DNA of 64,000 nt from a virus. The DNA is taken from positions 45,531-109,530 of IMG/VR virus record IMGVR_UViG_3300036861_001106. One strand, written 5' to 3'. Below the pieces are notes generated by a model that saw only the letters and a program-made list of their open reading frames with translations, did not search any database and was not told where the DNA came from. The translations under genes were made by a program, and so were the position numbers. Of this stretch, positions 7,766-57,700 are shown piece after piece (position 1 is the stretch's first letter; every line of letters begins with the position of its first letter).

Positions 7766-8739
7766 ATGGCCGCTACCTTTCTCGTGGAACCAGCGTAACG
7801 GAGCGAGCGGCACGGCGACAGACCTCGGATCAAGCGGAAATTTGGCTTCAAGAAGTTGGCCCCTCGCGTAGGAATGCGTGAGTGAAAACGGCGTGAATTG
7901 CGGGAAGCCTACAGCGAAGGCCATGGTAATCCGCAGCCAAGCTCGACAGGGCACTGGTTGTCGAGAAGGTTCAGAGACTAGAGGGTGAGTCCCAACAATA
8001 AGCCCTCCACGAGCGCGCCGCACCCAGATCGGGTGATGAGATAGTCCAAGCATCGGGGAAACCCGGTGAACTAGAACTTCAAGACCACGGACACGACGGG
8101 GATTGGAGATTACGCCGCGAATCCGGTCTCAGCCGGCTCGAACTCAATGGAAGTCGTACTGCGGATGCACTTCACAGGGTCTGCGGCCCCTCCAGCCTGA
8201 AAGGGCTGGTCGTGATGGCGTGAATTCGGGGAAGCCTACAGCGAAAGCCATGGTAATCCCGACCCAAGCTCTCCAGGAATGGTGAGAAGGGCTAGAGACC
8301 AGAGCAAGTAGACGAGACCCGTCGAACGCTCCACGAGCGCGCCACACCCCTCGGGGTGATGAGATGGTCCGACACTCCGTGGAAACGCGGAGAGCCTTGG
8401 ATAAAGAGCCAAGGTGTAACTGGTGCCTTCAACCGCATCGCCGACTTCCGATTCTGGCAATCGACGGCGTTCTCGCCGTCCACCGGCTTGCAGGTCTTCT
8501 GGTCCGGCACGCAGGTCATCTACCTGCAGCCGACCACCGGCACGTCGTCCATCGCCACGTCGTCCATCCCGACGACCGACCCTGGCACGGCGAACGTCAG
8601 CGTGGGTGGCTCCCTGACCGGATGCCTGACGACATCTGGTTTTACGGACCACATCTACCTTCAGCTCAGGACTGCGTCCAACGCTGCGGCAGGTGACACA
8701 TCGCTCGGAACTTTCACGGGCAGCTACACTGAGAACTAA
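7766..8739 (+). CDS. ~166-aa putative virion protein split by two group I introns (exons 7766-7847, 8075-8180, 8426-8739; exon 1 has a +1 frame discontinuity at 7778-7781)
   Basis: SD AGGAGGTG plus ATG; spliced product MAATFSWNQRNGASGTATDLGSSGNLA|NFKTTDTTGIGDYAANPVSAGSNSMEVVLRMHFTG|SFNRIADFRFWQ...YTEN stays in frame across both junctions. Confidence 0.75.
7848..8074 (+). ncRNA. group I intron 1 (227 nt, no ORF)
   Basis: 5' exon ends in U, intron ends in G; IGS GAAGTTGGCC (7852-7861) pairs over 10 nt with ligated junction GGCT|AACTTC including the U.G pair; P7 GACTA/TAGTC; core GAATTGCGGGAA...AATCCGCAGCCAAG. Confidence 0.9.
8181..8425 (+). ncRNA. group I intron 2 (245 nt, no ORF)
   Basis: P1 GGGU/GCCC; core GAATTCGGGGAA...AATCCCGACCCAAG; P7 GACCA/TGGTC; P9 hairpins; terminal G; removal restores the frame (T|CC = Ser). 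Confidence 0.85.
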
Positions 8740-42449: not shown

Positions 42450-43205
42450 ATGAGTGCTGACGCGCCCGAGACCCCCCGCGACGGTGAGTACCTCCCGACG
42501 TCCGCCGAGGCTGCCCTGCAGTTCCAGTCCCTGCGCGTGCTGCGGTTTGCGGAGGAGTACGTGCGGTGCGGCAACATGCAGGAGGCAGCGCGCCGCGCCG
42601 GCTTCACCGGGAGTGAGCCGCAGCTTCGACGGTGTGCCCAGCGACTGCTGGCCCGCGAGGACGTGGGGAACTACGTGGTCGCGCACCTGCGCTCCATCGT
42701 CTCGCCCGCCGAGGCGGGGGCCATCCTCTCCTCCATCATCCGCGGTTCGATGGGATTCTTCATCGACATCACGGAGGAGGGCACCCCCGTGCTGAACCTC
42801 AACAAGCCCGAGGCCCAGGCCAACCTGCACCTCATCAAGCGGCTCAAGCCAACTAAGCTGGGCTTTGAGATCGAGCTTTGTGACAAGATGCCAGCGCTTG
42901 CCCTCTACGCCAAGTACGCGCCGCCGCTCGACCAGCGCGCGATGCAGCGCCGCGCGGTGGAGGAGCTGCTGCAGGCTCTCCCGCCGAAGCTACGGGATGA
43001 GGCGCGGGAGGCGCTGTGTCAGGACCATGGCGCCAACCTCCAGGTCAGTGAGGGGCCTGACGGGGGTGACATGGCCAGCGCCGCTGCCGAGGTGGATCTC
43101 TCTTGGCTAAGACCGGAGGAGGAAGCAGCAGCAGCTACCACTACCACTCCCACTCCCACTGTTGCTCCAGCCCCTGAGGTAGAGGATGAGCCTGAATCTT
43201 GGTGA
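42450..43205 (+). CDS. terS: terminase small subunit
   Basis: FAEEYV.CGN..EAARRAGF...QRLL; IKRLK....GFEIELCDK; upstream of terL. Confidence 0.85.
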   Translation: MSADAPETPRDGEYLPTSAEAALQFQSLRVLRFAEEYVRCGNMQEAARRAGFTGSEPQLRRCAQRLLAREDVGNYVVAHLRSIVSPAEAGAILSSIIRGSMGFFIDITEEGTPVLNLNKPEAQANLHLIKRLKPTKLGFEIELCDKMPALALYAKYAPPLDQRAMQRRAVEELLQALPPKLRDEAREALCQDHGANLQVSEGPDGGDMASAAAEVDLSWLRPEEEAAAATTTTPTPTVAPAPEVEDEPESW

Positions 43206-44943
43206 GCAGATTGCGGGGTACATTCGCTCGCTGATTCCCGCATCTGACCTCTCCTCCGCCATCGGCTCCGACGAGCGCGAGGCGTGGCGGCAGCGGTACT
43301 GGTCGGACCCTGTCCTCTTTGCGCGTGACCACTACCGGTGGCACAACGACCGGTGGCTCGCGGCTTACCAGCAGGACATCCTGCGCCGGCTCCACACCCA
43401 CAAGCGCGTTGCTGCCTACGGACCCCGCTCGTTTGGCAAGACGGCGACCGTTGCCCACGCTTGCCTTCACTTCTGTCTCACCCGCGACGGCTTCACTGAC
43501 TGGAAGATCCCCACCACCGCTGGCGGCTACCGGCAGCTTGAGAAGTACCTGTGGCCCGAGCTGCACAAGTGGGCGCGCCTCCTGCGGTGGGACAAGCTCT
43601 GGCGCAAGCCCTTCTCGCGCCGTGACGAGCTGATGAAGCTCTCCCTGGAGGGGGAGACCGGCTCCGCCTTCGCCGTGGCCTCTGACGACGCCGCCCTCAT
43701 TGAGGGCGCACACGCCACGCAGATGCTGTTCATCTTCGATGAGTCGAAGAGCATTCCCGACTCCGTCTTCGATTCTGTGGAGGGCATGCTGGCCGGCGCC
43801 GGCCTTGATGACCAGGAGGCGTACCTCCTGGCGACCTCCTCCCCCGGCGACGTCAGCGGGCGCTTCTGGGCCATCTGCGACCGGCAGGAGAAGTTCGCCG
43901 ACTGGGACGTGCGGGAGGTGCGCATCGAGGAGGCCATCGCCGCGCGCCGCGTCAGCGCTGACTGGGCGCAGAAGCGCATGCTGCAGTGGGGGTACAGCTC
44001 CACCCTCTTCCAGAACCACGTCCTCGGCCGCTTCGCCAGCGCCGCCAGCGACGGCGTCATCCCCAGCTTCTGGGTCGAGGAGGCGCAGGCGCGGGGCCCG
44101 CAGGAGGCGCGTGGGCCCGCCGACGGCGCCAGCGTCGTCAACTTCGGGGTGGACGTGTCGCGCGGTGGGCGCAACGAGACCGTGATTGCCGTCCGCCGGG
44201 GCTGGGCCATCATCGACCTCATCGCCTGGCAGGACAACGACACCCTCAAGGTGGTCAAGCGGGTCAAGGAGGCAGCCGCGAAGTACCGCCCCGCCGCCAT
44301 CATCATCGACGCGGTGGGTGTGGGTGCTGGCGTGTTCGACGTCCTGCGCGACGAGGACTTCCCGGTGGTGTCCTTCCACGGCGGCGAGGCTGCGCCGGGT
44401 CCTGACTCCACCGGGGAGGTTGAGTTCCTGAACTTTCGCGCCTGGGCCTGGTGGCACCTGCGCGAGCTGCTCAACCCCCACGGGCCCGTCAAGCTCTCCC
44501 TGCCCGAGGATCGTGTCCTCCTCACGCACTTGACGGTCGGGACCTACAGCAAGGTGGGTGACCGGCTCAAGCTGGAGAGCAAGGAGGAGATCGAGAAGCG
44601 CCTGCGGAAGCTGAACCCCAACCCCGAGGAGAGCTGCTCCCCCGACCGCGGCGACGCCGTCGTCATGTGCTTCTCGGACGACAGCACCAGCAACTTCGCC
44701 ACCCTCTACACCGTCCACACCGCCGCCTCCCTCGCCGTCGAGGCGCCCCGCCTGCAGGGTCTCCCCACGTCGCCCGTTGCCCTCACCCCCACCGCTGCGA
44801 CCGCAGCGTTCGTCGCGCGGGAGCAGTGGTACGCGGCGCAGCAGGCTGCGCGGGAGAAGCAGGCGCGCCCGCTGGAACAGCAGCTCGACAGCCTGTTGTG
44901 GCAGCGGGCGCACCGGAACCACGACGTTTGGAACCAGGACTGA
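43186..44943 (+). CDS. terL: terminase large subunit
   Basis: GPRSFGKT, FIFDES, NFGVDVSRGGRNET, IDAVGVGAGV, SPDRGDA. Confidence 0.92.
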   Translation: MSLNLGEQIAGYIRSLIPASDLSSAIGSDEREAWRQRYWSDPVLFARDHYRWHNDRWLAAYQQDILRRLHTHKRVAAYGPRSFGKTATVAHACLHFCLTRDGFTDWKIPTTAGGYRQLEKYLWPELHKWARLLRWDKLWRKPFSRRDELMKLSLEGETGSAFAVASDDAALIEGAHATQMLFIFDESKSIPDSVFDSVEGMLAGAGLDDQEAYLLATSSPGDVSGRFWAICDRQEKFADWDVREVRIEEAIAARRVSADWAQKRMLQWGYSSTLFQNHVLGRFASAASDGVIPSFWVEEAQARGPQEARGPADGASVVNFGVDVSRGGRNETVIAVRRGWAIIDLIAWQDNDTLKVVKRVKEAAAKYRPAAIIIDAVGVGAGVFDVLRDEDFPVVSFHGGEAAPGPDSTGEVEFLNFRAWAWWHLRELLNPHGPVKLSLPEDRVLLTHLTVGTYSKVGDRLKLESKEEIEKRLRKLNPNPEESCSPDRGDAVVMCFSDDSTSNFATLYTVHTAASLAVEAPRLQGLPTSPVALTPTAATAAFVAREQWYAAQQAAREKQARPLEQQLDSLLWQRAHRNHDVWNQD

Positions 44944-45835: not shown

Positions 45836-46507
45836 CTAGGCCAGCTTCAGGACCGGCCACTTCTTGCGCTTCAGAAAGCCGAGTGCGCCGAACCCCAGCA
45901 GCCCCAGCGAGCAGGGCTCGGGGACCGGGTTAGGTAGGCAGTCGCCCTTGTCGTAGCGGAACTGTGCCATGGCGAAGTCCACGTCGGAGTGCGCCACGAC
46001 CTTCGAGAACAGCGCGCCGTCGTCCACCGAGGCGAACAGCCGTGCACCCGCCGCGCCATCCACGGGGCGCGTGATGCTGCCCAGCAGCACGTCACCGGCG
46101 TCGTAGAAGTCCGCCGTGATGTCATGCACCGCGAACGGGTTGGGCTCCGCCTCGAAGCCGAAGATGCTCGTCGGGGAGCTGAGGAGCATCGTGACCGAGG
46201 TGGCTCCCTTGGTCCACAGGACCGCGGGGGTGGCGCTCTCGCTGTCCGGGGGGCTGCTCCAGGTCGCCCAGCCGCCGCCCGGGACCGTCCGCTTCTGCAT
46301 CAAGGAAGAAAACGAGACGGTCTCCGTGCCGTCCGTGATCGAGCCGACGTCAGTGAAGTTGGGCAACCCACTGAAGTCGATCTTCGTGGTGACGAAGGTG
46401 TACAGCACGGACGGCGAGGAGATGTCCTCAAAGGTGGCGTGCGCCGGGCGGGGGCACGCCGCGCAGGTCAGCAGCAGCGACAGGGCGACCAACAGCTTGT
46501 GCTTCAT
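45836..46507 (-). CDS. PEP-CTERM surface protein
   Basis: signal peptide ending AHA; C-terminal VPEPCSLGLLGFGALGFLKRKK; SD GGAGGAG. Confidence 0.9.
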   Translation of the reverse strand: MKHKLLVALSLLLTCAACPRPAHATFEDISSPSVLYTFVTTKIDFSGLPNFTDVGSITDGTETVSFSSLMQKRTVPGGGWATWSSPPDSESATPAVLWTKGATSVTMLLSSPTSIFGFEAEPNPFAVHDITADFYDAGDVLLGSITRPVDGAAGARLFASVDDGALFSKVVAHSDVDFAMAQFRYDKGDCLPNPVPEPCSLGLLGFGALGFLKRKKWPVLKLA

Positions 46508-46631
46508 GTAACTCCTCCCCCTCGCGGGGCTGTCAGGGGCTCCTTGCGGAGCCAGTTCCTCACCCGGCGCGACCCTCTCACGGGTCCCTGGCGTCGGGCA
46601 ACTTGCTTGGTGCAACCTCCGTGCCAAACCG

Positions 46632-49600
46632 CTAGCCAGCGTGAAAGTCGGTGAGGATGACGCCAGGGGTTCCCTGCGTCGTGAGTTCCTCGCACGTTGA
46701 GAACGTCGCATCAAGCCAGGCGCGCTTGCCCTCGGCGCCGACACTGTGCTCGGCTGCAATCGCTCGCGCCTCCTCTGCCGTGGCAGCGCGCACCACAAGG
46801 CCATAGGTGCAGTCATAGGTGATCAACCACGGATTTTGCGCCTTCGTGTCAGGCAGCCCCTCTCTTTCTCGTAGCAGCCAGAGCTTCATGCCTCCTCCTT
46901 CGCGTGCTGCCGCGCTCGCCGTTCGTCCCGCCTCTCCACGTACAGCTCCACCGCCCGCAGGGGGTCCTCCAGGTAGCACTCAGCGAACAACACGCCGTCG
47001 AAGTCGTCCTTCGAGACGTCCTCATAGTGCACAGCGATGGAGACTGCGTCAGCCACCTGGTGGATAAAGTCGAGCCTCTCCTCTGGGCACTCCTTCTCCG
47101 CCGCGCACACGGTCATGCTAATTGGCTTTTGGACTCGGGTGATCGTGATCGGCCAGTCAGGCCGCAGGGTGCGTGCGACCATTGCGGCAATCGTCACCTG
47201 GTTGCGCCGGTAGGTCTCGAACTCCTCGTCGGTCACCTCCCAGCCGGCCGGCTTGATGGCACCCACTCGGAGGTGGGTCATGATCTTCTCGTCACTCATC
47301 CTCTGCGTCCTTCCACACCTCTGCTGAGACTGGGTACGTGCTGGTGCTGCCGGTCAACAGCCTCACCGGCACCCACACGCCCGGTGCCTTGCGGCCCTGG
47401 CGGGCGCGCGTGTGGTTCACCTGCGTCGCCGGCACCTCGCGCCGGCCCGGCTCGCTGCACAGCCACACCTCGCGCGTCACCGCGCGGGCGAAGCGGTAGA
47501 GCCGCACGCCGCCCCGCGTGTCCTCCACGGCGTACCACCACCTCACTGCCTGCCCTCCCACCACGCCTGGGCCTTCAGTGCCACCAGCAGGATCACGATG
47601 CCCACCAGCAGGGCCCCGCCCATGATCGCCCCTGGCGACAGCGTCTCGACGCCGCCGCGGGCCAACATCATCACCGCTGCACCTCTGCCACGTGCCTCAC
47701 GTTCATCTCTTGGCTCCTTTGTCGCCGTCCGCCTCCAGCCAGTGGTGCTTCCTTCGCCACTCTCGCAGCACCTTCTCGGGGTTTGGCTCAGTGCGGGCGT
47801 AGCGCAGCAGCAGCGCCTGCCCCACCGCCTCGCGCTCGTTGAGGTCATCCATGAGGGCGTTGTAGTCACTCCCCGACAGGTTGATGCTGTTGTAGGGGCT
47901 CATGTGGCGGTTGCGGCTCACCGTCGCACCTCCGCCACGCGCTCCATGATCACCAGGAAGCGCGCCCCGTTCGAGTACTGCACCACGGTGACCCCGCCCG
48001 GCGTCACCCGCCACCCCCGCCCCAGCCGCCCGCGCAGCTCGCTCGCCAGCTCGCTGTCCGTGCACCACACGAAGTCCTGCTGGCGCACCTGCTTGAGCAT
48101 CCCGCCGGTGGGGCCAAACCCCCCCGTCGTGCCCGGGCTCACCCGCTCCGCCTGTGCCTGCGTCACGTGGCAGAGCCCCGCGCCCGTGAGCGCCACGATG
48201 GCCAGGAGGCCAATGAGCGACCGGTGCTCCTGAAGTTGCAGCCGAAGTTCCTTGAGCATCACTCCTCCTTCATTGCGCGCTGCAGCTCAGCGAAGTCTTG
48301 GTCGACGGCGCGCATCGTCATCTGTAGGGCATCGCTGATTGCGCTTTGAATGCTGATCGTGTAAGTGGTCCTCCCATTGATGAAGATGTGGATGCATCCC
48401 CGCCACAGGTTCAATTCACCTTGGAAGTGAATCTCACCACGCACGTTTGGGGCGTAGAACTTTGTCCACCTGCCGTCGGGCAGCTCACGCCACCCTCTCA
48501 CTGCGTCTTGACTGTCCATTCTCCCCCCAGGAGCCGCTCCAGCTCCGCTGTCGCCGTTGCCTCGTGGCCCTGCCGCACGCCGCGCAGGGTCACCTCACTC
48601 CCTGCCTCGTTGCGGACCACCACCCGGCGCTCCTGCACCACCCGCGTCTCCACGGTGATCAGTTGCACGTTCCACTCCCCTCGGAGCGTGCCAGGATGAA
48701 CTCTGCTACCTCCGCGCGGAAGGCCACGTACCGCGCGTCCTGTGGGCTCCCCACCAGGCCAAACATGCCACTTGCTCCCTGTGGGTCACCTCGTTCCATG
48801 TTCTCGGTGGTCAGGCCGACCATGATTTCAGCCGGCGCAAAGCCACTCGCCTGCGCCAGGATAGCAAGCGTTTCCCCGAACTTTAGTGCCGCCGCCGTGG
48901 CCTCCTGCTCGGTTGTTGCCTTTCCCCGGAGGCGGCTCCAGGTTCCCTCATTCACGGTCACGAGGATCTCCACCTCGCCCCCGCGGCGTTGCACGCGGGC
49001 CATGAACTCCTCAGCGAATTGAACGCGCTCCACAGTCATCGTCTCCCTCCCGGCAGGAGCCCAAAGCCCCCTGCCAGCACCAGGCACGTCATGGCGATCA
49101 CCACGCCGTTCACCGCCCACCCCACCAGGCTCGGGCACACCTGCATGCCGAGCCAGCCAACGAGGAGCCACCCGAGGAACCTCATCGGTCTGCCTCCGTC
49201 GGCGCAGTGAACTTGTCACCCCACGCGCACTCCACTGGGATGGCCACGAGCAGGCACTCTCGCTCCTCCAGCCAGGGCCCACGCCGCACTTTCTCATCGG
49301 CAGACTCCCAGAAGCAGGGTTGGAGGCTCTGCCACCGACCATAGTCTTCAGACATCACTCCAACCAGCTCATAGCCCCCGCCGATGCGGCCCTCGCGCGT
49401 GTTGGTGATTCGGCCGCGCCCCAGGACGAAGCCCTGCGACGCCGCCAAGCCCTCGACCACGCCGCGCTTGAAGTCCTCAGGCAGCTCTTTCAATCCCGTC
49501 TCCCTCCTCACAACACCCGGTGGCGCAGCGCCGTCTCGTCGCCGTACAGGGTGCAGGCCAGCGCCGCCATCACTGCCCGGTTCGCCTCCTCCACCGTTCG

Positions 49601-50078
49601 CAGGGGCCACGGCACGCGCAGGTGCCCCTTGCAGTCCAGGGGGAACAGGCGCGCGTCGGCGAGCAACTCGTTGAGCCGCCGCAGCTCCCCCGTCAGGCAG
49701 TCCACCCGGTGGGTGCCCCCGGTGGGCCGGTGGCCAATCGTCCCCTTGCTGCGGTAGATCGTGATCACCTCCGCGCCCGGCGGGAGCAGCCGGCGGAGGG
49801 TCATCAGCGCCCGGTCCTGCGCCTCCGCCTCGCACGCCCCGTGCGTTCCTGTGAGCCTCACCTCAGACCTCCTTTTTCACCAGCTCAACCACGCGCCGCG
49901 CCTCACCACTGTGTGCGACCACGCGCTGGGCACTCTCGCGTGTCAAGGTGAACCCCGCACTCCGGTAGGTCCCCAGCGTGCGCCGGAATACTTGGTTGGC
50001 GAACCCCTCGTCGTCGTCCGACCAGGCGCTGATCAGCGTCCCCGTCTCCGCGTCCGTGGTCTGCACCTGCCACCTCAT
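46632..50078 (-). other. array of small hypothetical early genes
   Basis: tightly coupled short ORFs with SD and overlapping stop/start. Confidence 0.6.
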
Positions 50079-51361
50079 TTGTCCTCCCTCTGGAACTTGT
50101 ACTCGTACCCGTCGCACCTATGAACTTTCTTGCAGGCGCGGTGAGTGACTTCAATACTGCCACCTATTTTAAATGACCCAGAGGCCCTGACTGCCACGCG
50201 TCCAACGTGGGTCATTCTGACCTCCTTTCTTGTTACCGTCGCGCTCACGATGTCTCCCGTTTGAAATCCGAAGTGCAGCTTCTTTCGGGTTCGGTGCCTC
50301 GTGGGGAATCCATGCGCGTTCAGGCCGCACATCTGTCGCTTTCCCCACCCTGTGGCCTTGATGCTGAGGGGGCGAATTCCCCTGACTTGAAGCTGTTCCG
50401 GTGTGCTCGCGCCAACGCAGGCTGCATCAAGCCAGTGCTCCTTTGGCAGTCCCAGGCGCGTTCGGTTGAACTTCGTGCGCCCGCCAGTGCCAACTTCAAT
50501 CGGCAGCCCAGTTGCTGTCAGCCGTCGCCACAGGACCCACCGCGTTGCGTTGACTGCCGCCGCGTCCTTGAGTGGGGCCTTCAGCCCGGCGAGGATCTTC
50601 TTCAGGACCTCAGGGTGTCTGGCCAGGAACTCCTCCACTGGCCGGTTGCTCTTGGCCTGGTTGCACGGCCCACACGCGAGGGTGAGGTTCGAGACGCGGT
50701 GCGTGCCGCCTCCATCGCGCGGGCGCACGTGTTCCACCTGGAGCGGGACGTGTTCCGCATTACAGTAGGCGCACCTCCGGCCCCACTTCTCCAGCAAGTA
50801 CTCCCGCACCTCATAGCCAGCCAGCTCACCCTGCTGGTACTCGACTCCTGTCACCTCCGGGTTCTGCAACGCCTGGGTGTCGAAGCGCACCGTCTCCACG
50901 CTTAGTGCGCCAACGGGCGCGAACCGGCACAGGCGGCCCACCCACGTCTCCACGTTGGCCACCCGGCTCTCCAGCGACGGCGGCAGCCAACCCTCCCGTC
51001 GGGTGCGGTTGTCAAAGCGTGGCTTGCGGTAGCGCGTCTTCCGGTTTCGGCGGTTGCGTCGAACTGCGCTTCGTTTCTTCATGCACTTCTCAATGAGCAT
51101 GCCATGGTGCTCGACCTCTGCGGCGAAGATGACGGTCGCTGCCACGTCGTCCACAAGGGCAACCCCTGTGACCTTGCTGCCTGGGTCCAACTTCAGGCGC
51201 AGGGGGCGTGGCGTGGCGTCCACCACCTGTCGCCGCAGGATGATGGTGAAGGGAAAGCGCCGCAGCACGGCCGCTCTTCCCGTGGCCAGCAACTTCCGCG
51301 CCACTGCGGCGTGGCAGGGCGTCAGCGGCTGGCGATCCGCGTTCAGGACAAAAACTCGCAT
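50075..51361 (-). CDS. iscB: IscB RNA-guided endonuclease (428 aa; PLMP, split RuvC, bridge helix, HNH)
   Basis: MRVFVL...PLTPCH, LKLDPGSK (RuvC-I), RRNRRNRKTRYRKPRFDNR, VETVRFD (RuvC-II), CAYC...EHVRP...SNLTLAC..CN..K (HNH), HWLDAACVG (RuvC-III). Confidence 0.95.
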   Translation of the reverse strand: MRVFVLNADRQPLTPCHAAVARKLLATGRAAVLRRFPFTIILRRQVVDATPRPLRLKLDPGSKVTGVALVDDVAATVIFAAEVEHHGMLIEKCMKKRSAVRRNRRNRKTRYRKPRFDNRTRREGWLPPSLESRVANVETWVGRLCRFAPVGALSVETVRFDTQALQNPEVTGVEYQQGELAGYEVREYLLEKWGRRCAYCNAEHVPLQVEHVRPRDGGGTHRVSNLTLACGPCNQAKSNRPVEEFLARHPEVLKKILAGLKAPLKDAAAVNATRWVLWRRLTATGLPIEVGTGGRTKFNRTRLGLPKEHWLDAACVGASTPEQLQVRGIRPLSIKATGWGKRQMCGLNAHGFPTRHRTRKKLHFGFQTGDIVSATVTRKEVRMTHVGRVAVRASGSFKIGGSIEVTHRACKKVHRCDGYEYKFQREDK

Positions 51362-51619
51362 CGCTGCGAACTCCTCTCGCGAGGGTAAGGTTTGCCTCGA
51401 CGATGTTAGCAGGCGGCCGTCTCCCGGACTCACTGTGGCACCCACGTGAACCTCGCTTAAAGCCCGGGTTACAGGGCGGCAGGCTGGCAACGCACCCGCC
51501 GGTGTGAACTTGGGCGCTCTCTGCTAACGTAGCCCGTTGACCGGCTGACGCCGGTCCTGGCTGGGTCTGGTCTGCCAGGGAGCGAGTTAACCTCGCTCCC
51601 ATGCGCGCGTGGGGCAGAC
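51362..51619 (-). ncRNA. omegaRNA scaffold
   Basis: directly upstream of iscB; 5' stem GTCTGCC/GGCAGAC followed by CAGAC, CTACGTT, GGGTGC..GCCAGCC and AACATCGTCGAGGCAAACCTTACC elements typical of omegaRNAs. Confidence 0.85.
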
Positions 51620-51841
51620 GAACCGTGGCCAATGCGCGGGCGGCTGGAACCTCTCGCTCCCATGCGCGCGTGGGGCAGACTTGTCGCGAATGAGGCCGGA
51701 GTGGCGGAACAGCCTGCCTCCCGCGCGCGCGTGGGGCAGACTGGTGGACCCAGCTACGGTCGCCCAACGTCGCCCTGCCTCCCGCGCGTGTGTGGGACAG
51801 ATGACCGGGCCGATGACCTCCCGCGCGTGTGTGGGGCAGAC
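51591..51841 (-). CRISPR. mini CRISPR-like array: five 29-nt repeats, three 32-nt spacers and one 10-nt remnant
   Basis: repeats at 51591, 51652, 51713, 51774, 51813; (-) consensus GTCTGCCCCACRCRCGCRYGGGAG(CG/GC)AGG; period 61, 61, 61, 39. Confidence 0.85.
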
Positions 51842-51842
51842 C

Positions 51843-53434
51843 TCATTGCCCTCGTCCCTTCCACCACGCCATGCAGAACCCCACAATGAGCGCCACGAGC
51901 CAGATGAGCAGGAACAGCCCTAGAGTCCGCGCGTCGATCACTGTGCTGCCCCGGGCCACTCAAAGCTGAATGGCTCAACCGCCTCCCCGGCCATGAACTG
52001 CGCGATCTTCTCCCCTACGGCATCAGGTAGCCGCACGGTGGCCTCACCTTCAATGAAGACTACCAGGCAGCCGACGCTCCTGAACCTCACCCCTGCCGCC
52101 TTGAGTGCCACTGCCACGCAGCAGTGCGTTGTTGCTCGCTCACCCACGGTCAGGGCCTCGCGTGCCTGGGCGATGTGCTCCGCTGTCACCTCAATCCGCA
52201 TCGTCACTTGCCTCCCGCTGTGCCGCCTCAATCTCGTCGGCCAGCCGCTCCCAGTCGAGCGCGCACTTCCGCCAGTCCGCCGCCGCGCGCTCGTGAAACT
52301 CGCGCCACTCTGCCCGGCGCCACCACCGCCGCGCCTGTGCCGCCACCTCATGCTCGCGCACCAGCTCATAGCACCTTGCTGCTTGGGCGCGGAACCACTT
52401 GGTGTCTGCCATTGCCGCCTGGGGGAACATTGCTACTTTCCTGCGCAGCCACTCGTTGTCTGCCATGGTCGCCTCCTGCACCCTCTGTGCCAGTCTGCCG
52501 TTGCTTCCTCACGACGCAGTGTTGTGCCGCTCCGCGACCGCCCAGAAGAGGGCATCGAACTCCACCGGCAGCAGGTCGTCCAGCGGGCAGCCGTCCTCGT
52601 CGACGTTCCGCGCCCCGTTGTGGCTGTCGACGGGCTCGATGCAGATGCTCCAGCCCTGCGCCGTCACCTCCCGCTGGAGGTCCGCCGCGAACTCGCGGAC
52701 GTCGCCAGCCCAGAGCGGACCCAGCATCGCCGCGTCAATCTGGTACGTAATTGGTTCCACGCCGCTACCTCCGGCCTTCTTCCTCACGCCTCCACCTCCC
52801 GCCACCGCCCCTGCGCCACCCGCCGCGCCTGCCGCGCCGCCCGCCGCTCCTGCTGGCGCAGCGTGCGCTCAAACTCGCGCTCTGCCGCCTCCGCTGCCAG
52901 CTCGGCGCGCTGCGCCTTCGCCTCCAGCCACTGCCTCACTGCTCGGTCCATCCCTCTCCTCTTTCCCTACTCGTACGCCGCGCCCCGCGCGTCCAGCTCC
53001 TCCTCACAGTCCGCCTGCTGCGCCTCCCAGCGGTGGACGTCCTCATCGAGGTGCTGCCACTCCTTCAGTCCCTTCGCCGCGAAGGCGCGCTTGATCCGGG
53101 CAATTGCCGCCTGCGCGCGGGCCTCTGTCCAGTAGGCCCGCAGCGCCTCCGTGTCCAGGTCTTGTAGGCTTCTCATTGCGCCTCCGGGTCGACCGTCGTC
53201 TCGATCACCTCGCACCGCACGAGGCGGTACTCTTCCCGCATTGGCGAATTCAACGCGGTTGGGCTCCTCTTCTCCCAGTCACGCCGCTCCTCCACCGCGA
53301 GGTTGTAGCGCGCCCGAGCGAGCTGCTCGTTGGTCGTGCGGGTGCTCCCGCTCACCGGTTCCATCTCCGACCAATCGGTGGCCTGACCGACGAATCGTTT
53401 CTCCACAACGTAAAAAGTCATCACCTCACTCCTC
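51843..53434 (-). other. array of small hypothetical early genes
   Basis: coupled short ORFs. Confidence 0.55.
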
Positions 53435-54076
53435 CTAAACCTGCGCCCCACGCCCGCGGGCGAAGGTGCACGCCTCCTGCCACCCCAGCGCCGTGAAGAT
53501 GCCGCTCTTCGGGCCAAAGTAGCCATTCCCCGGCTCCTCGAAGAACCTGTACCTAACGGCGTGGTCTCCAGGTGACCAAGTAGCGACGTACAAGCCGACT
53601 GCCTTGCATGCTTCTTGAAGTCTTTCCAATCGCGTCTTCTTTCCAGTCATTCGATTTCTTTCCTGTCGCTTCTCGCGTCTTTGTGAGTTTTTGCATTCTC
53701 GGCAGACTCGCCGTCCTCGCTTGTCTTTGGGGCCATAAGGATGCCCGTGAGGACAGTGGGTCTTATTGGCAAGTATTGTAGCCGCACCGTCTTCTTCCTT
53801 GATATGCTCCGCTGCTGTTTTCGGCTCCAGGTGCTCAAAGTTAGCGCAGGCGCGATTTCGACATCGATGATGCAATTGCTGATCCTCCGTTAGAGGCTCA
53901 ACGAAGTGCGCATAAACGACTCTGTGAACAACATGCGCTTTCCTACTCATGCGTGCTTCGCCATACCCGCGCGTGTTTAACCTTGGGTACTCCCAGCATC
54001 CCGTTTCGAGCGCGCTTGGCTCGCAAATCTTCAGGCGCAGGAGGACTTCTCCAATCGTAAGCGTTGGCATCGGCAT
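53435..54076 (-). CDS. HNH endonuclease reading in frame into a downstream small gene
   Basis: CWEY...GYG...HRVVY...HHRCRNRACAN..HL, KTHCPHGHPY...CREC; internal ATG at ~53650. Confidence 0.8.
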   Translation of the reverse strand: MPMPTLTIGEVLLRLKICEPSALETGCWEYPRLNTRGYGEARMSRKAHVVHRVVYAHFVEPLTEDQQLHHRCRNRACANFEHLEPKTAAEHIKEEDGAATILANKTHCPHGHPYGPKDKRGRRVCRECKNSQRREKRQERNRMTGKKTRLERLQEACKAVGLYVATWSPGDHAVRYRFFEEPGNGYFGPKSGIFTALGWQEACTFARGRGAQV

Positions 54077-54886
54077 CAGTTTACCCCGTCACCTGGGCTG
54101 TAGGTTGTCACGTAGAGCCCCACCTTCTCACATGCAGCCTGCAGTTGTTCAAGCCGTGTCATCTTCGTCAGCCCTACCCTCTCGCAAGTCGCTCGCAGTC
54201 GTTCTAGTCGTGTCATCGTCAAATCCACGCCCGTTCAAGCTTGTACGCCCCGCGCTCGTCCCGCGTGTCAGCACCCCAGAGCGCGTGCATCAGGTCGTAG
54301 ACGACCGCAAATCCCATGTCCATGCCCCCGCCTTCCACGATCAGCCCCTCATGGTCCTTGTGGTGGTGGTACATGCCTGTCGCAGCAATGAGCCTGTTCA
54401 GGTGGAACGGTCCCCCCTTCGGGTGCCACTCGTTTGTGTGCCACGTGAAGAAGCCAATCACGCGCCGACTACTCCCCTTCCGCCAGTGCCGCAGCACGCA
54501 GTACACTGTCGTGCCCGCTGGGCAGACCTCTCTCAAGCCCTCAAGCGCTTCCTCTCGCGTCATCATTGTTCCATCCTCCTACCCTACTTATCGGTCGCTC
54601 GCCCGCCTCTCTCAATCAATCCTTTGGTGGATTCCCGCGTGTCAGCCTCAGGAAGGCAATCACCTCCCGCTCTGCGTTCACGACGCGCTCCAGCGCCCAC
54701 CTGCACGCCTCCGCGTCGCCCGCGCAGGCGAGGTCGCTTGTGCCCTCCGCCTCCCCGTCGCTCGTCTTGACGTCAAACCCCGCGAGCGTGAGGATCTCCT
54801 TCACGCGCCGGGCCTGCCGCTTCTCGGCGAACGTCGTGAGGTACCCGTACTCCTTTGTCACCACGCCTCTACCTCCGTCCTGGCTT

Positions 54887-55360
54887 CTAGTAGCGTCGCG
54901 AGATCCAATTGGTTGCGGCCGTCATGTCAAAGATCCGAAACTGTCGTCCTGCCGGAGCAAGCTGGACTGCCAGGCGTTGCATTGCAGCGGTCGCCGCCGC
55001 CCCGCGTGGGGTTGTCCAGTGGTCGCCTGACAGCACAAGGATTCCTTCTGCCGTTGGCCACTGGAAGAGCCCATTCAGTAGGACGTACGGAATCTTCTCA
55101 TCGCAACTGCCGCTGACACCTTGATGCTTCACCTCGATCGTCACTGTGGGGGTGCCATCCTGAAACAGGAGAAAGTCGACAACCCCCGCCGTTTGGTAAA
55201 TCGTGGTGAATGGAAACTCCCTGACGGCAATCAGGTCGTTAGCTCGCTCGCGGGCCCAGCGTGCGTGAGGCATGACCTTTACGCCCCGCGCAGTCAGTGC
55301 CATTGCAATGACCTCCTCGCCGGAGGCACGCCCGCGTGTGGTCTCCCCGCCGCCGGCCAT
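54887..55360 (-). CDS. PD-(D/E)XK restriction endonuclease-like protein
   Basis: VDFLL...IEVKHQGVSGSCDEKIPY; TAATG coupling to the MTase. Confidence 0.7.
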   Translation of the reverse strand: MAGGGETTRGRASGEEVIAMALTARGVKVMPHARWARERANDLIAVREFPFTTIYQTAGVVDFLLFQDGTPTVTIEVKHQGVSGSCDEKIPYVLLNGLFQWPTAEGILVLSGDHWTTPRGAAATAAMQRLAVQLAPAGRQFRIFDMTAATNWISRRY

Positions 55361-55926
55361 TACTCGCCTCCCCCACACCGGAGCACAGTTCCAAAGTCGG
55401 CGAACACCCGCGCAAAGCGCGTGGCATCAGGCCCAAAGTAGAGGAAGGCCTGTCCCCGCGTGTTTCCACTGACGCGCTTCCCGTCGATGTTCTCAAACCC
55501 GATGCGGTGGTTCGTGAAGCACACCGCAGTCGCGGTGCCTAGGAGCAGTTGAAAGAACCTCGTCTCGGTCGCGTTGTTGACGAGGACGATCCCTGCCTGA
55601 AATCGCCCGCTGTGGAAGGCTGCCACGAACTGCTGACACGCTTCAAGCACGAGCGCGCCAGAGTACGGCGGGTTCATCCAACAACTGCTCACCTCGGGCC
55701 ACTTCGGGCCCGCAGGCGCCGGCCGCTGGGCCGTGAAGAAGATGCGCGCCCCAACGCGCTCGTTTGCTGCCACGCTGGAGTACGGGTCAAGGTCGATTCC
55801 GCCCAGCACCCCGCGCGCCGCGTCAAGGTACCGCGCCGGCGTGTTCCACGAATCCGAATCCCGTGCCTCACTGCCTGGGGTCCGTCCAATGTACCCCAGG
55901 TGTTCCTTTGCCGCTGTTGTCACCAC
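55360..55926 (-). CDS. phage Dam-like N6-adenine DNA methyltransferase
   Basis: SDSWNTP, IDLDPYS, WMNPPYS, LVNNATET.FFQ, RIGF. Confidence 0.9.
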   Translation of the reverse strand: MVTTAAKEHLGYIGRTPGSEARDSDSWNTPARYLDAARGVLGGIDLDPYSSVAANERVGARIFFTAQRPAPAGPKWPEVSSCWMNPPYSGALVLEACQQFVAAFHSGRFQAGIVLVNNATETRFFQLLLGTATAVCFTNHRIGFENIDGKRVSGNTRGQAFLYFGPDATRFARVFADFGTVLRCGGGE

Positions 55927-57700
55927 GCCTCGACCACCCTTCCCTCGCGCGTCAGGCGCCCCGCCATGCCCGCCCGCTGCAGCCACGCCAACCACCCAAT
56001 CGCCTCCCCGCGCCCCGCGACCCGCCGGAACTCGCACCACGCCCCGTCAACGCGCCGCTCGACCACGTACCCCACCCTGACCTCCTTCCTGCCTCCTCGT
56101 CTCCGCTCGCGCCTACTCCCCGCTGCTGGAGTACCCCGCCGTCAGTGCCTGCAGCACCTCCCGGACGTGCGCCAGTTGCTGCTCTTCTACTGCGCGCGTC
56201 GCCGCTCCTCCCGCCCATGCCGCCGCCCGCGCTGCCGTCGCTGCCGCCTCGCTCGCTGCCCGCGCCGCCCGCATCGCCGCTCTACACACCGCCCTCAGCT
56301 CCGCCGTCGTGACCTCCCCGCGGAGCCACCGCCGCTTCGCCTCGATGGCCGCCCACGAGCGCGCGTCTGGCTCCCGCCCCGCCGCCCGCTCCGCCTGCAG
56401 GGCGTCCTCCGCGAAGTTGCACGCGAGCCAGTGCAGGGCTGCCGCTGGCAGGAACTCCTCGCGGAGGAGGAGCCAGAGTCGATCCGCCGCAGGGATCGGG
56501 AGGTCGCAGGCCTCCAACGGGGTAAGCTCCGCGCGCCCCGCCGCCAGGGTCTCGACTCGCGCCCGACTGTAGCACGGATCAAAGCTCATCACCAGGTCAA
56601 CCGTCAGGTTCCTCACTCCAGCACCTCCTCCACATGCTCCCGCGGGAACCGCGCCAGGATCGCGCCCAGCGCCCGCAGGGCCTGGCGGCGCGCCTGCGAG
56701 CGCGACCGCGTGAAGCCCGCCGTCGCACAGACCACCGTCCGCACCGCGCGCCCCTGGGGGTCATGGTGTGTACAGGTCACCAGCCCGTCAAAGCCACCCT
56801 CCGCCGCGCGCGTGATTGCCCGGTACGTCCGGGTCGGCAGGTCAGGCTCAAACGTGGGCGACCACACCCGGTACGTGCTGATCATTACTCTCTTCTCCTA
56901 ACCGTTAGGTCCTCCTCGCAGGCTCTTGTCATAGTTACAGATTCAAATCGCCTAGTTTTCATCGCGCCTGTTCCTGCAGCCGCCGAATCTTGGAGTCCTG
57001 TGCCGTGTCTAGAACCATCGTCGCGCGCTCAACTGTTTCTTCGTCCCAGGATGTTGGATCCAAGGGGATGCCCGCCTTCCTGAGCGCTCGCTCTGCTTCC
57101 TGCGTCGTTAGCTGTGCCTGTTCCCATGTCATGGCCTATCCCTCCTCCTCGTCTGGCCAGCAAGTGACTTCCTCGCGCTTGTTGCTGTATCGCCCCGTTC
57201 CCGTCAGGTATTCATAGTCATCCTGACAGAGAGTCCCGTCGGCATCATAGTCCTTTCCGGCGATCGGCTCTCTCCCTGTGAGGAGCCGAAACCCAGGGTA
57301 AACCCTTGGCGACCCGTTAGGCTTTCGGCAATAGAGACAGTAGACAGTTGATGCTCCTCCGTCAAATCCTGTGCCTGGCGATACCATGTATCCCGTTCCC
57401 TCGCAGTGTTCGCAACCCTTCATCCCTCGCTTCCCTCCCGCTGGAGTTCGCCCAGCAACGCCTTCCCAGCGTCCGTGTAGCCGCAAACGGCATCCCTTCC
57501 CTCTCCCTGGCACCACACGAGTCCCTTCTTCACGAGGGATGACAGCACGCCTGCCCGGCTCCTGGAGCCGCTGACCACGCTCCAGGACCAGGGACGGGAG
57601 TCGGCGGTCCCGTCAGAGTACTCATCCTCCATGATGGCCAGGAAGACGTCCAATTCCTTCGTGGTCAGATTCCGCCGTGCATCCATCTTCATCCCTTCAT

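Follow-up and report, generated by a model that had tools for sequence, protein, structure and literature searches.

The window analysed here is a stretch of 64,000 nucleotides (bases 45531-109530 of the IMG/VR record IMGVR_UViG_3300036861_001106), and the source record, 109,530 bp (~110 kb) in length, is classed as complete with terminal repeats. A phage-borne cassette of about 1.77 kb was identified in this window, consisting of a repeat array, an omegaRNA of the HEARO family and an iscB gene. On the minus strand the order runs from repeat R5 to repeat R1, followed by the HEARO omegaRNA and then by iscB. The direction of the transcript was set by the HEARO match and by iscB, both of which are located on the minus strand. 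The features are listed below, with the evidence for each in brackets.

50075..51361, (-), iscB, encoding protein P0001 of 428 aa, stop codon at 50075-50077 (Pfam, PDB and homologue alignment)
51385..51619, (-), omegaRNA (HEARO, RF02033), full model 1-211 (Rfam, 91.4 bits for a gathering score of 83, E 1.3e-18)
51570..51586, (-), anti-repeat, made up of 9 nt from the 3' side of hairpin b, then a U, then 7 nt from the 3' side of stem P1 (Rfam structure line, minimum-energy fold and duplex energies)
51587..51590, (-), TTAA loop, which with base 29 of R1 makes the 5-nt loop linking R1 to the anti-repeat (sequence and minimum-energy fold)
51591..51619, (-), repeat R1, covering P1 (5' strand), hairpin a and hairpin b (5' half) (the omegaRNA begins with these 29 nt)
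51620..51651, (-), spacer 1, 32 nt, candidate cis guide (directly 5' of HEARO model position 1)
51652..51680, (-), repeat R2, 28/29 identical to R1 (pairwise identity and duplex energy)
51681..51712, (-), spacer 2, 32 nt (unrelated to spacers 1 and 3)
51713..51741, (-), repeat R3, 25/29 identical to R1, self-closing by CUGCC with GGCAG (identity, energy and fold)
51742..51773, (-), spacer 3, 32 nt (position between R3 and R4)
51774..51802, (-), repeat R4, 21/29 identical to R1 (pairwise identity and duplex energy)
51803..51812, (-), spacer remnant, 10 nt (R5-R4 spacing of 39 nt)
51813..51841, (-), repeat R5, the most distal, 20/29 identical to R1 (pairwise identity and duplex energy)
51843..51959, (-), ORF of 38 aa with one hydrophobic stretch, its stop codon one base before R5 (ORF prediction alone)

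IscB is a small nuclease ancestral to Cas9. The phage protein gave a full-length match to the RRXRR domain (PF14239, 7.1e-69) and a match to the HNH domain (PF01844, 6.3e-10) of Pfam, and solved IscB structures (PDB chains) matched it at 4.5e-42 to 1e-22. Its N-terminal RRXRR/PLMP-RuvC region, its inserted HNH domain and its length are those of an IscB (about 400-500 aa). Upon alignment with 23 metagenomic homologues, identities of 59-68% were obtained with 98-100% of the length aligned, and D59, E156, H211, N234, H309 and D312, matching the expected acidic and histidine positions, were invariant in the phage protein and in all 23 homologues. As read from the sequence, the ORF is intact and its assignment to the IscB family is certain. 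The HEARO omegaRNA is located directly upstream on the same strand. No Y1 transposase (TnpA) of an IS200/IS605 context was found anywhere in the complete phage genome, and no promoter for the array, omegaRNA and iscB cassette was detected in the sequence. The array may be co-transcribed with the 38-aa ORF at 51843-51959. There is an overlap between this ORF and the end of the 143-aa gene upstream of it (phrog_19191).

The phage genome has a G+C content of about 64% and carries phage-like replication genes for a DnaE-like polymerase, a primase and a helicase. The DnaE is only about 30% identical to those of the nearest GenBank phages (Microbacterium phages), and the helicase neighbours found in the search for related phages are at most 29% identical. 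Just upstream of the IscB cassette is a cluster of DNA-acting genes at 53435-56040 (-), encoding an HNH endonuclease (phrog_826, 2.6e-30), a protein with a PD-(D/E)XK nuclease domain and a Dam-type N6-adenine methyltransferase. A Group I intron match (RF00028, 79.4 bits for a gathering score of 50) was found at 7839-8068 (+) of the window. The ORF at 45836-46816 (-), of 326 aa, carries a C-terminal PEP-CTERM sorting motif (PF07589, 9.5e-05), which may hint at an exosortase-bearing host. The ORF at 43141-44922 (-) was rejected as an antisense reading, the real gene being 43186-44943 (+) by GC3 analysis.

Repeats, spacers and the anti-repeat

The five repeats, each of 29 nt on the minus strand, are spaced from start to start by 61, 61, 61 and 39 nt in the order R1 to R5. 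The three full spacers show no significant mutual similarity (p > 0.05) and are all of 32 nt, and a simple tandem duplication is ruled out by this lack of relationship together with the uniform length. Sites with at least 20 of 28 matches to R1, searched on both strands of the 109.5-kb genome, were confined to the five repeats and one unrelated site, indicating that the array is not a product of chance; the repeat core does not occur again in the phage genome. There is no leader-like gap before the array, as R5 begins one base past the stop codon of the 38-aa ORF.

The first-pass annotation had proposed that the decay of the repeats increases toward the 5' end of the presumed transcript, and the graded pairwise identities (of 29 positions, 28 for R1-R2, 24 for R2-R3, 25 for R3-R4, 23 for R4-R5 and 20 for R1-R5) agree with this proposal. 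Its description of the individual repeats was likewise borne out. R1 and R2 agree in 28 nt, base 29 (G in one and A in the other) being their single difference; R3 and R4 share a distinct 3' end, GGGAGGCAGG, self-complementary to CTGCC, and in R3 it closes as CUGCC with GGCAG; and R5 is degenerate at its 3' end, where the last four bases differ, with the 10-nt spacer remnant at 51803-51812 beside it. The self-fold of R3 (-16.4 kcal/mol) was modestly below that of shuffled sequence (z -1.85; 10 of 200 shuffles were as good), and that of R4 was unremarkable (-8.3, z -0.8).

Position 1 of the HEARO model is the first base of R1, which spans model positions 1 to about 33. By the Rfam structure and the minimum-energy fold, R1 contributes the 5' strand of P1 (GUCUGCC), the small hairpin a and one half of hairpin b, the 5' one (GGGAGCGAG). 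The repeat is in other words the opening 28-29 nt of a HEARO-type omegaRNA, with the cut falling at the hairpin-b loop. The anti-repeat of the scaffold is complementary to this repeat over 7 + 9 bp, and the duplex energies with the anti-repeat at 51570-51586 were -28.3 kcal/mol for R1, -28.1 for R2, -19.6 for R3, -15.0 for R4 and -18.1 for R5. The earlier claim that only the two repeats proximal to the omegaRNA fully match the anti-repeat thus holds, with energies of -28.3 and -28.1 kcal/mol for these two versus -15 to -20 for the others.

Only R1 is covalently joined to the anti-repeat strands, via the 5-nt loop. Since R1 is joined in cis to the anti-repeat, spacer 1 plus the omegaRNA is predicted to be a natural single-guide RNA, as had been suggested at first sight of the locus, and it should serve as such for the intact IscB; the junction of the array to the omegaRNA supports this suggestion. 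The predicted pairing of R2 with the anti-repeat is about equal to that of R1, and the two compete for the anti-repeat in the predicted full-length fold. Use of spacer 2 in trans could be energetically feasible, although R1 competes in cis for the anti-repeat. The regular repeats, the unrelated spacers, their contiguity with the guide RNA and the complementarity of the scaffold anti-repeat to the repeat are altogether the characteristics of a CRISPR-associated IscB.

Relatives, targets and the origin of the repeat

Among the 80 closest genomic relatives of the phage IscB (53-64% identity; loci of Chloroflexota, Ktedonobacteria, cyanobacteria and others), none carried a spacer array. This comparison covered the genomic loci, leaving aside the contigs that encode P0002-P0025 (IscBs of 65-68% identity). 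A full HEARO copy was located directly upstream of iscB in all 20 genomic relatives tested. Most of the 5' ends of these 20 omegaRNAs follow one plan of P1, hairpin a, hairpin b and P1, with the sequence order GTCAG.., CCCC..GGGG, CTTG..CAAG, ..CTGAC, then CAGAC. This common plan indicates that the phage repeat is derived from the omegaRNA. With an array in 0 of the 80 relatives, the array of the phage arose independently. The HEARO score of the phage (91.4) was ranked lowest among the relatives tested, the IscB-adjacent copies of which gave 85-159 bits.

Periodic signals were detected at two relatives (L102 and L137), and were rejected as spacer arrays, being 67-nt whole-unit tandem copies at L102 and coding repeats at L137. 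At L102:2090-2290, three 67-nt whole-unit tandem copies (72-90% alike) are located upstream of a Microcoleus iscB as a true tandem duplication. Other arrangements were observed around relatives. In a Chloroflexia MAG, one iscB is preceded by two HEARO copies about 960 nt apart (L089:1290-1504 and 2253-2464), the second of which differs from the first at its 5' end; in a Blastocatellia MAG, a Twister-P5 ribozyme (L111:1215-1277 (-)) is located some 1 kb away from the omegaRNA of an IscB; and in K. racemifer, an IscB omegaRNA has a group II intron domain (L100:1902-2018 (+)) immediately upstream of it.

The protein search of viral contigs with IscB returned only one contig, L006 (IMGVR_UViG_3300029288_000111, 101 kb), with an IscB 40% identical to that of the phage. 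L006 resembles the phage locus in having an array, a last repeat folded onto an anti-repeat, a scaffold and iscB, and also in its degenerate distal repeats and shortened distal unit: the repeat identities rise toward the scaffold (83, 90, 93, 95, 100 and 100%), and the distal spacing is 53 versus 71. It differs in its repeat of 37 nt with a period of 70-71 nt. The omegaRNA of L006 was not detected by Rfam HEARO, and the L006 repeat was found among viral contigs only in its own contig. The two scaffold-proximal repeats of L006 (L006:3530-3639) share 40 identical nt, of which 3 (AAC) lie past the 37-nt core, with a spacing of 70, not 71, and the last duplication in L006 seems to have had shifted boundaries. 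Just upstream of its array, at L006:3121-3186, are three 22-nt tandem palindromic units (AGGTCACAGATTGTGACCT-like), which could be an operator or promoter element.

The search of viral contigs for the repeat pattern gave no match. The repeat core was found at 52 loci when 241 million metagenome records were searched, and at none of these did matches recur at the spacing of an array; by appearance these are chance GC-rich or unrelated sequences, and none has an omegaRNA-like continuation. In 401 Chloroflexota genomes the repeat core gave nine single hits with three mismatches each and no array. These searches bear on the idea that the upstream repeats are not guides for IscB and serve as RNA decoys aimed at a host CRISPR system of class 1, in the style of RNA anti-CRISPRs. 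Phages carry repeat-mimic RNAs, and both the 29+32 geometry and the closed hairpin of R3 would suit such a role. No array with this repeat was found, however, in the 241 million metagenome records or the 401 Chloroflexota genomes, the repeat descends from the omegaRNA, and the R3 hairpin is only marginally better than its shuffles, so that decoys are a very improbable explanation.

With respect to targets, the only spacer to match the phage itself was spacer 1, over 15 GC-rich nt (E 0.002), a match attributed to chance. The 3' 20-mers of the spacers gave no match in viral contigs (IMG/VR), no spacer target was found in GenBank phages, and the matches in plasmids were all non-significant. In the five genomes harbouring the nearest IscBs, Cse1 is missing.

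Direction of array growth

The array most likely grew, or stays uniform, at the scaffold end. As a whole, the best explanation of the locus is a phage CRISPR-associated IscB that gains units at the scaffold end and retires the older ones, for which we estimate a probability of roughly 0.55. A spacer inserted into R1 would duplicate R1 and become the cis guide at once. The older units would be displaced upstream, be freed of selection and decay, as seen in R3 to R5 and in the truncated distal unit. With no leader present, the polarity would then follow from selection for a guide that works. The constant 28/29 + 32/33 geometry and the unrelated spacers would point to a ruler-type host integrase (Cas1-Cas2 of I-E- or I-F-like geometry). 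Spacer 2 might be used in trans, or a deletion between R1 and R2, which are identical, might bring it up to the scaffold; the spacers lying upstream of R3-R5 have probably been retired. Growth at the scaffold end is favoured because R1 equals R2, the distal unit is truncated, no leader is present at the R5 end and L006 shows a parallel arrangement, and also by the functional logic that only the spacer adjoining R1 is a cis guide. It is a plausible reading of the repeats, favoured but unproven.

The variable columns of the repeats are nested. R1 and R2 differ from R3-R5 at positions 18, 19, 25 and 26, and R1-R3 differ from R4 and R5 at positions 12 and 14. Private changes are absent from R3, and only two are found in R4 (repeat table). 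If growth took place at the scaffold end, it is the functional R1 lineage that must have changed at 12, 14, 18, 19, 25 and 26, and the changes at positions 25-26, in the hairpin-b stem, would need compensating changes in the anti-repeat. Changes in the R1 lineage beside an unchanged relic R3 would be the reverse of what constraint predicts, and this pattern counts against growth at the scaffold end. The searches of viral contigs and metagenome records also gave no related array or related phage in which the varying end could be seen.

The same columns raise a serious alternative, albeit a somewhat unlikely one, in which the array is static or a hybrid. The block of R1, spacer 1, R2 and the scaffold and the block of R3-R5 would be two diverged alleles joined by recombination within a repeat, or R2 would be a single recent duplication; the gradient would then reflect selection on the cis repeat alone and neutral decay elsewhere. 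Such a junction is in agreement with the two repeat blocks differing at four linked positions (18, 19, 25 and 26) with no intermediate, and the lack of private changes in R3 suits a recent junction better than a long residence as a relic. The phage carries no adaptation genes, and neither targets nor sister arrays were found, which also fits an array at rest. The second nested split at 12 and 14 (R4 and R5 versus R1-R3) nevertheless fits a stepwise history better than a single junction, and three unrelated spacers of exactly 32 nt would still require a ruler mechanism at some time.

The pairing positions bear further on the canonical polarity, in which units are added at the 5' (51841) end, R1 is the original start of the omegaRNA and R2 has been kept by selection or gene conversion. 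No compensating change in the functional R1:anti-repeat pair is then called for, which makes it the most parsimonious account of positions 25-26. On this polarity, however, the newest repeats would be the poorest partners of the anti-repeat and the newest spacer would be only 10 nt long, there is no leader and R5 abuts a stop codon, and R2 must have kept its 28/28 identity through a period in which 8-10 changes accumulated in its sister lineages. L006, moreover, is degenerate only in its two distal repeats, like trailer ends, with no nested pattern. Addition at the 5' end is altogether quite unlikely.

The variable base 29 does not separate these readings. In the type I-E array of E. coli, the base that comes from the spacer is number 29 of the repeat lying 5' of that spacer, and integration at the second site takes place at the penultimate base of the repeat (PMC4574026). 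The variable base of the phage array also sits 5' of its spacer, as in E. coli, with one informative difference, and to this extent it matches the canonical polarity, yet it fits either growth end. Where the spacer-derived base falls is determined by how the integrase is oriented on the repeat and not by which repeat it uses, and base 29 therefore discriminates no growth end. Base 29 had been considered as a contradiction of scaffold-end growth on the basis of the E. coli I-E topology, and this argument was dropped as the base fits both growth models.

Comparison with known systems

CRISPR-associated IscB is a published type (Altae-Tran et al. 2021, Science 374:57, as summarised in the commentary PMC11610941). 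The guide RNA of DelIscB, upstream of its ORF, is composed of repeats, spacers and an anti-repeat; its processing into crRNA-like and tracrRNA-like parts is stated as still open, and so is how CRISPR-associated IscBs obtain or use more than one guide (PMC12660989). The phage locus is like this type in that the last repeat and the anti-repeat form a hairpin, making a natural single guide upstream of iscB, and in that no adaptation genes are nearby and the association arises sporadically. It is different in its repeat of only 29 nt with 32-nt spacers, in a recognisable standard HEARO 5' end split at the hairpin-b loop, in being carried by a complete 110-kb phage and in the documented graded decay toward the 5' end. 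DelIscB and the clade of the phage IscB probably have little sequence in common.

With the transposon-type IscBs (OgeuIscB and the K. racemifer IscBs; RF02033), the phage system shares the protein family, the architecture of the omegaRNA and the guide directly 5' of P1. Its closest genomic relatives (53-64%) are of this type, with one guide and no array, and the phage differs from them by the array and from transposon-type IscB in general by the lack of TnpA. As in type II CRISPR-Cas9, the repeat pairs with an anti-repeat of the scaffold and the effector is a RuvC-HNH protein. Unlike in type II, the last repeat is linked in cis to its anti-repeat, cas1, cas2 and csn2 are absent, and the array is upstream of the scaffold on the same strand, so that the scaffold-proximal unit is the 3'-most in the transcript.

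The array resembles those of type I-E in its 29-nt repeat, its highly uniform 32-nt spacers (32/33 nt in the I-E geometry, with a period of 61 three times) and its variable last repeat base. The first-pass annotation had taken this base to fit the 28+33 rule of type I-E integration: the 28/29 + 32/33 geometry stands and base 29 is compatible with I-E, but one variable base in five repeats is not diagnostic. Unlike type I-E arrays, the phage has no I-E cas genes, Cas1 and I-E Cas2 being absent from the complete phage genome, and no leader, with the ORF stop codon on one side of the array and the omegaRNA on the other. The repeat is of omegaRNA ancestry, and descent from the omegaRNA 5' end accounts for its sequence. 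The link to type I-E is weak, and the geometry is what it consists of.

Integration by E. coli Cas1-Cas2 at off-target sites, founding new arrays, has been reported (Nivala 2018, by the accounts in PMC7054753 and bioRxiv 10.1101/148544), which makes an origin by a host integrase mechanistically conceivable. In its full form the proposal is that the first 28 bp of the omegaRNA gene are a substrate for host Cas1-Cas2 with I-E-like rulers, and that the phage IscB thereby gains guides at the guide position and retires old ones upstream; at present it must be regarded as doubtful. CRISPR-associated IscBs are considered to be intermediates between the transposon OMEGA nucleases and Cas9. If the proposal were true, the locus would be a living intermediate from a one-guide transposon nuclease to an adaptive CRISPR-Cas9-like system, in which the array takes its polarity from selection for the cis guide instead of from a leader.

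The array is a real and well-defined feature, and nothing here shows ongoing adaptation. Its description in the first-pass annotation proved accurate, and the mechanism proposed there is supported in part. The locus offers a clean natural example in which the repeat is traced base by base to the omegaRNA 5' end and is split at a crRNA:tracrRNA-like point. Its 29+32 geometry and decay gradient make two ideas testable, namely that host integrases write guides into an omegaRNA gene and that use is limited to the one or two spacers adjacent to the scaffold. In practical terms it provides a compact IscB of 428 aa with a short, defined repeat:anti-repeat module. Within the category already published, what is particular to this phage is the repeat traceable to the HEARO 5' end, the 29+32 geometry and the independent origin.
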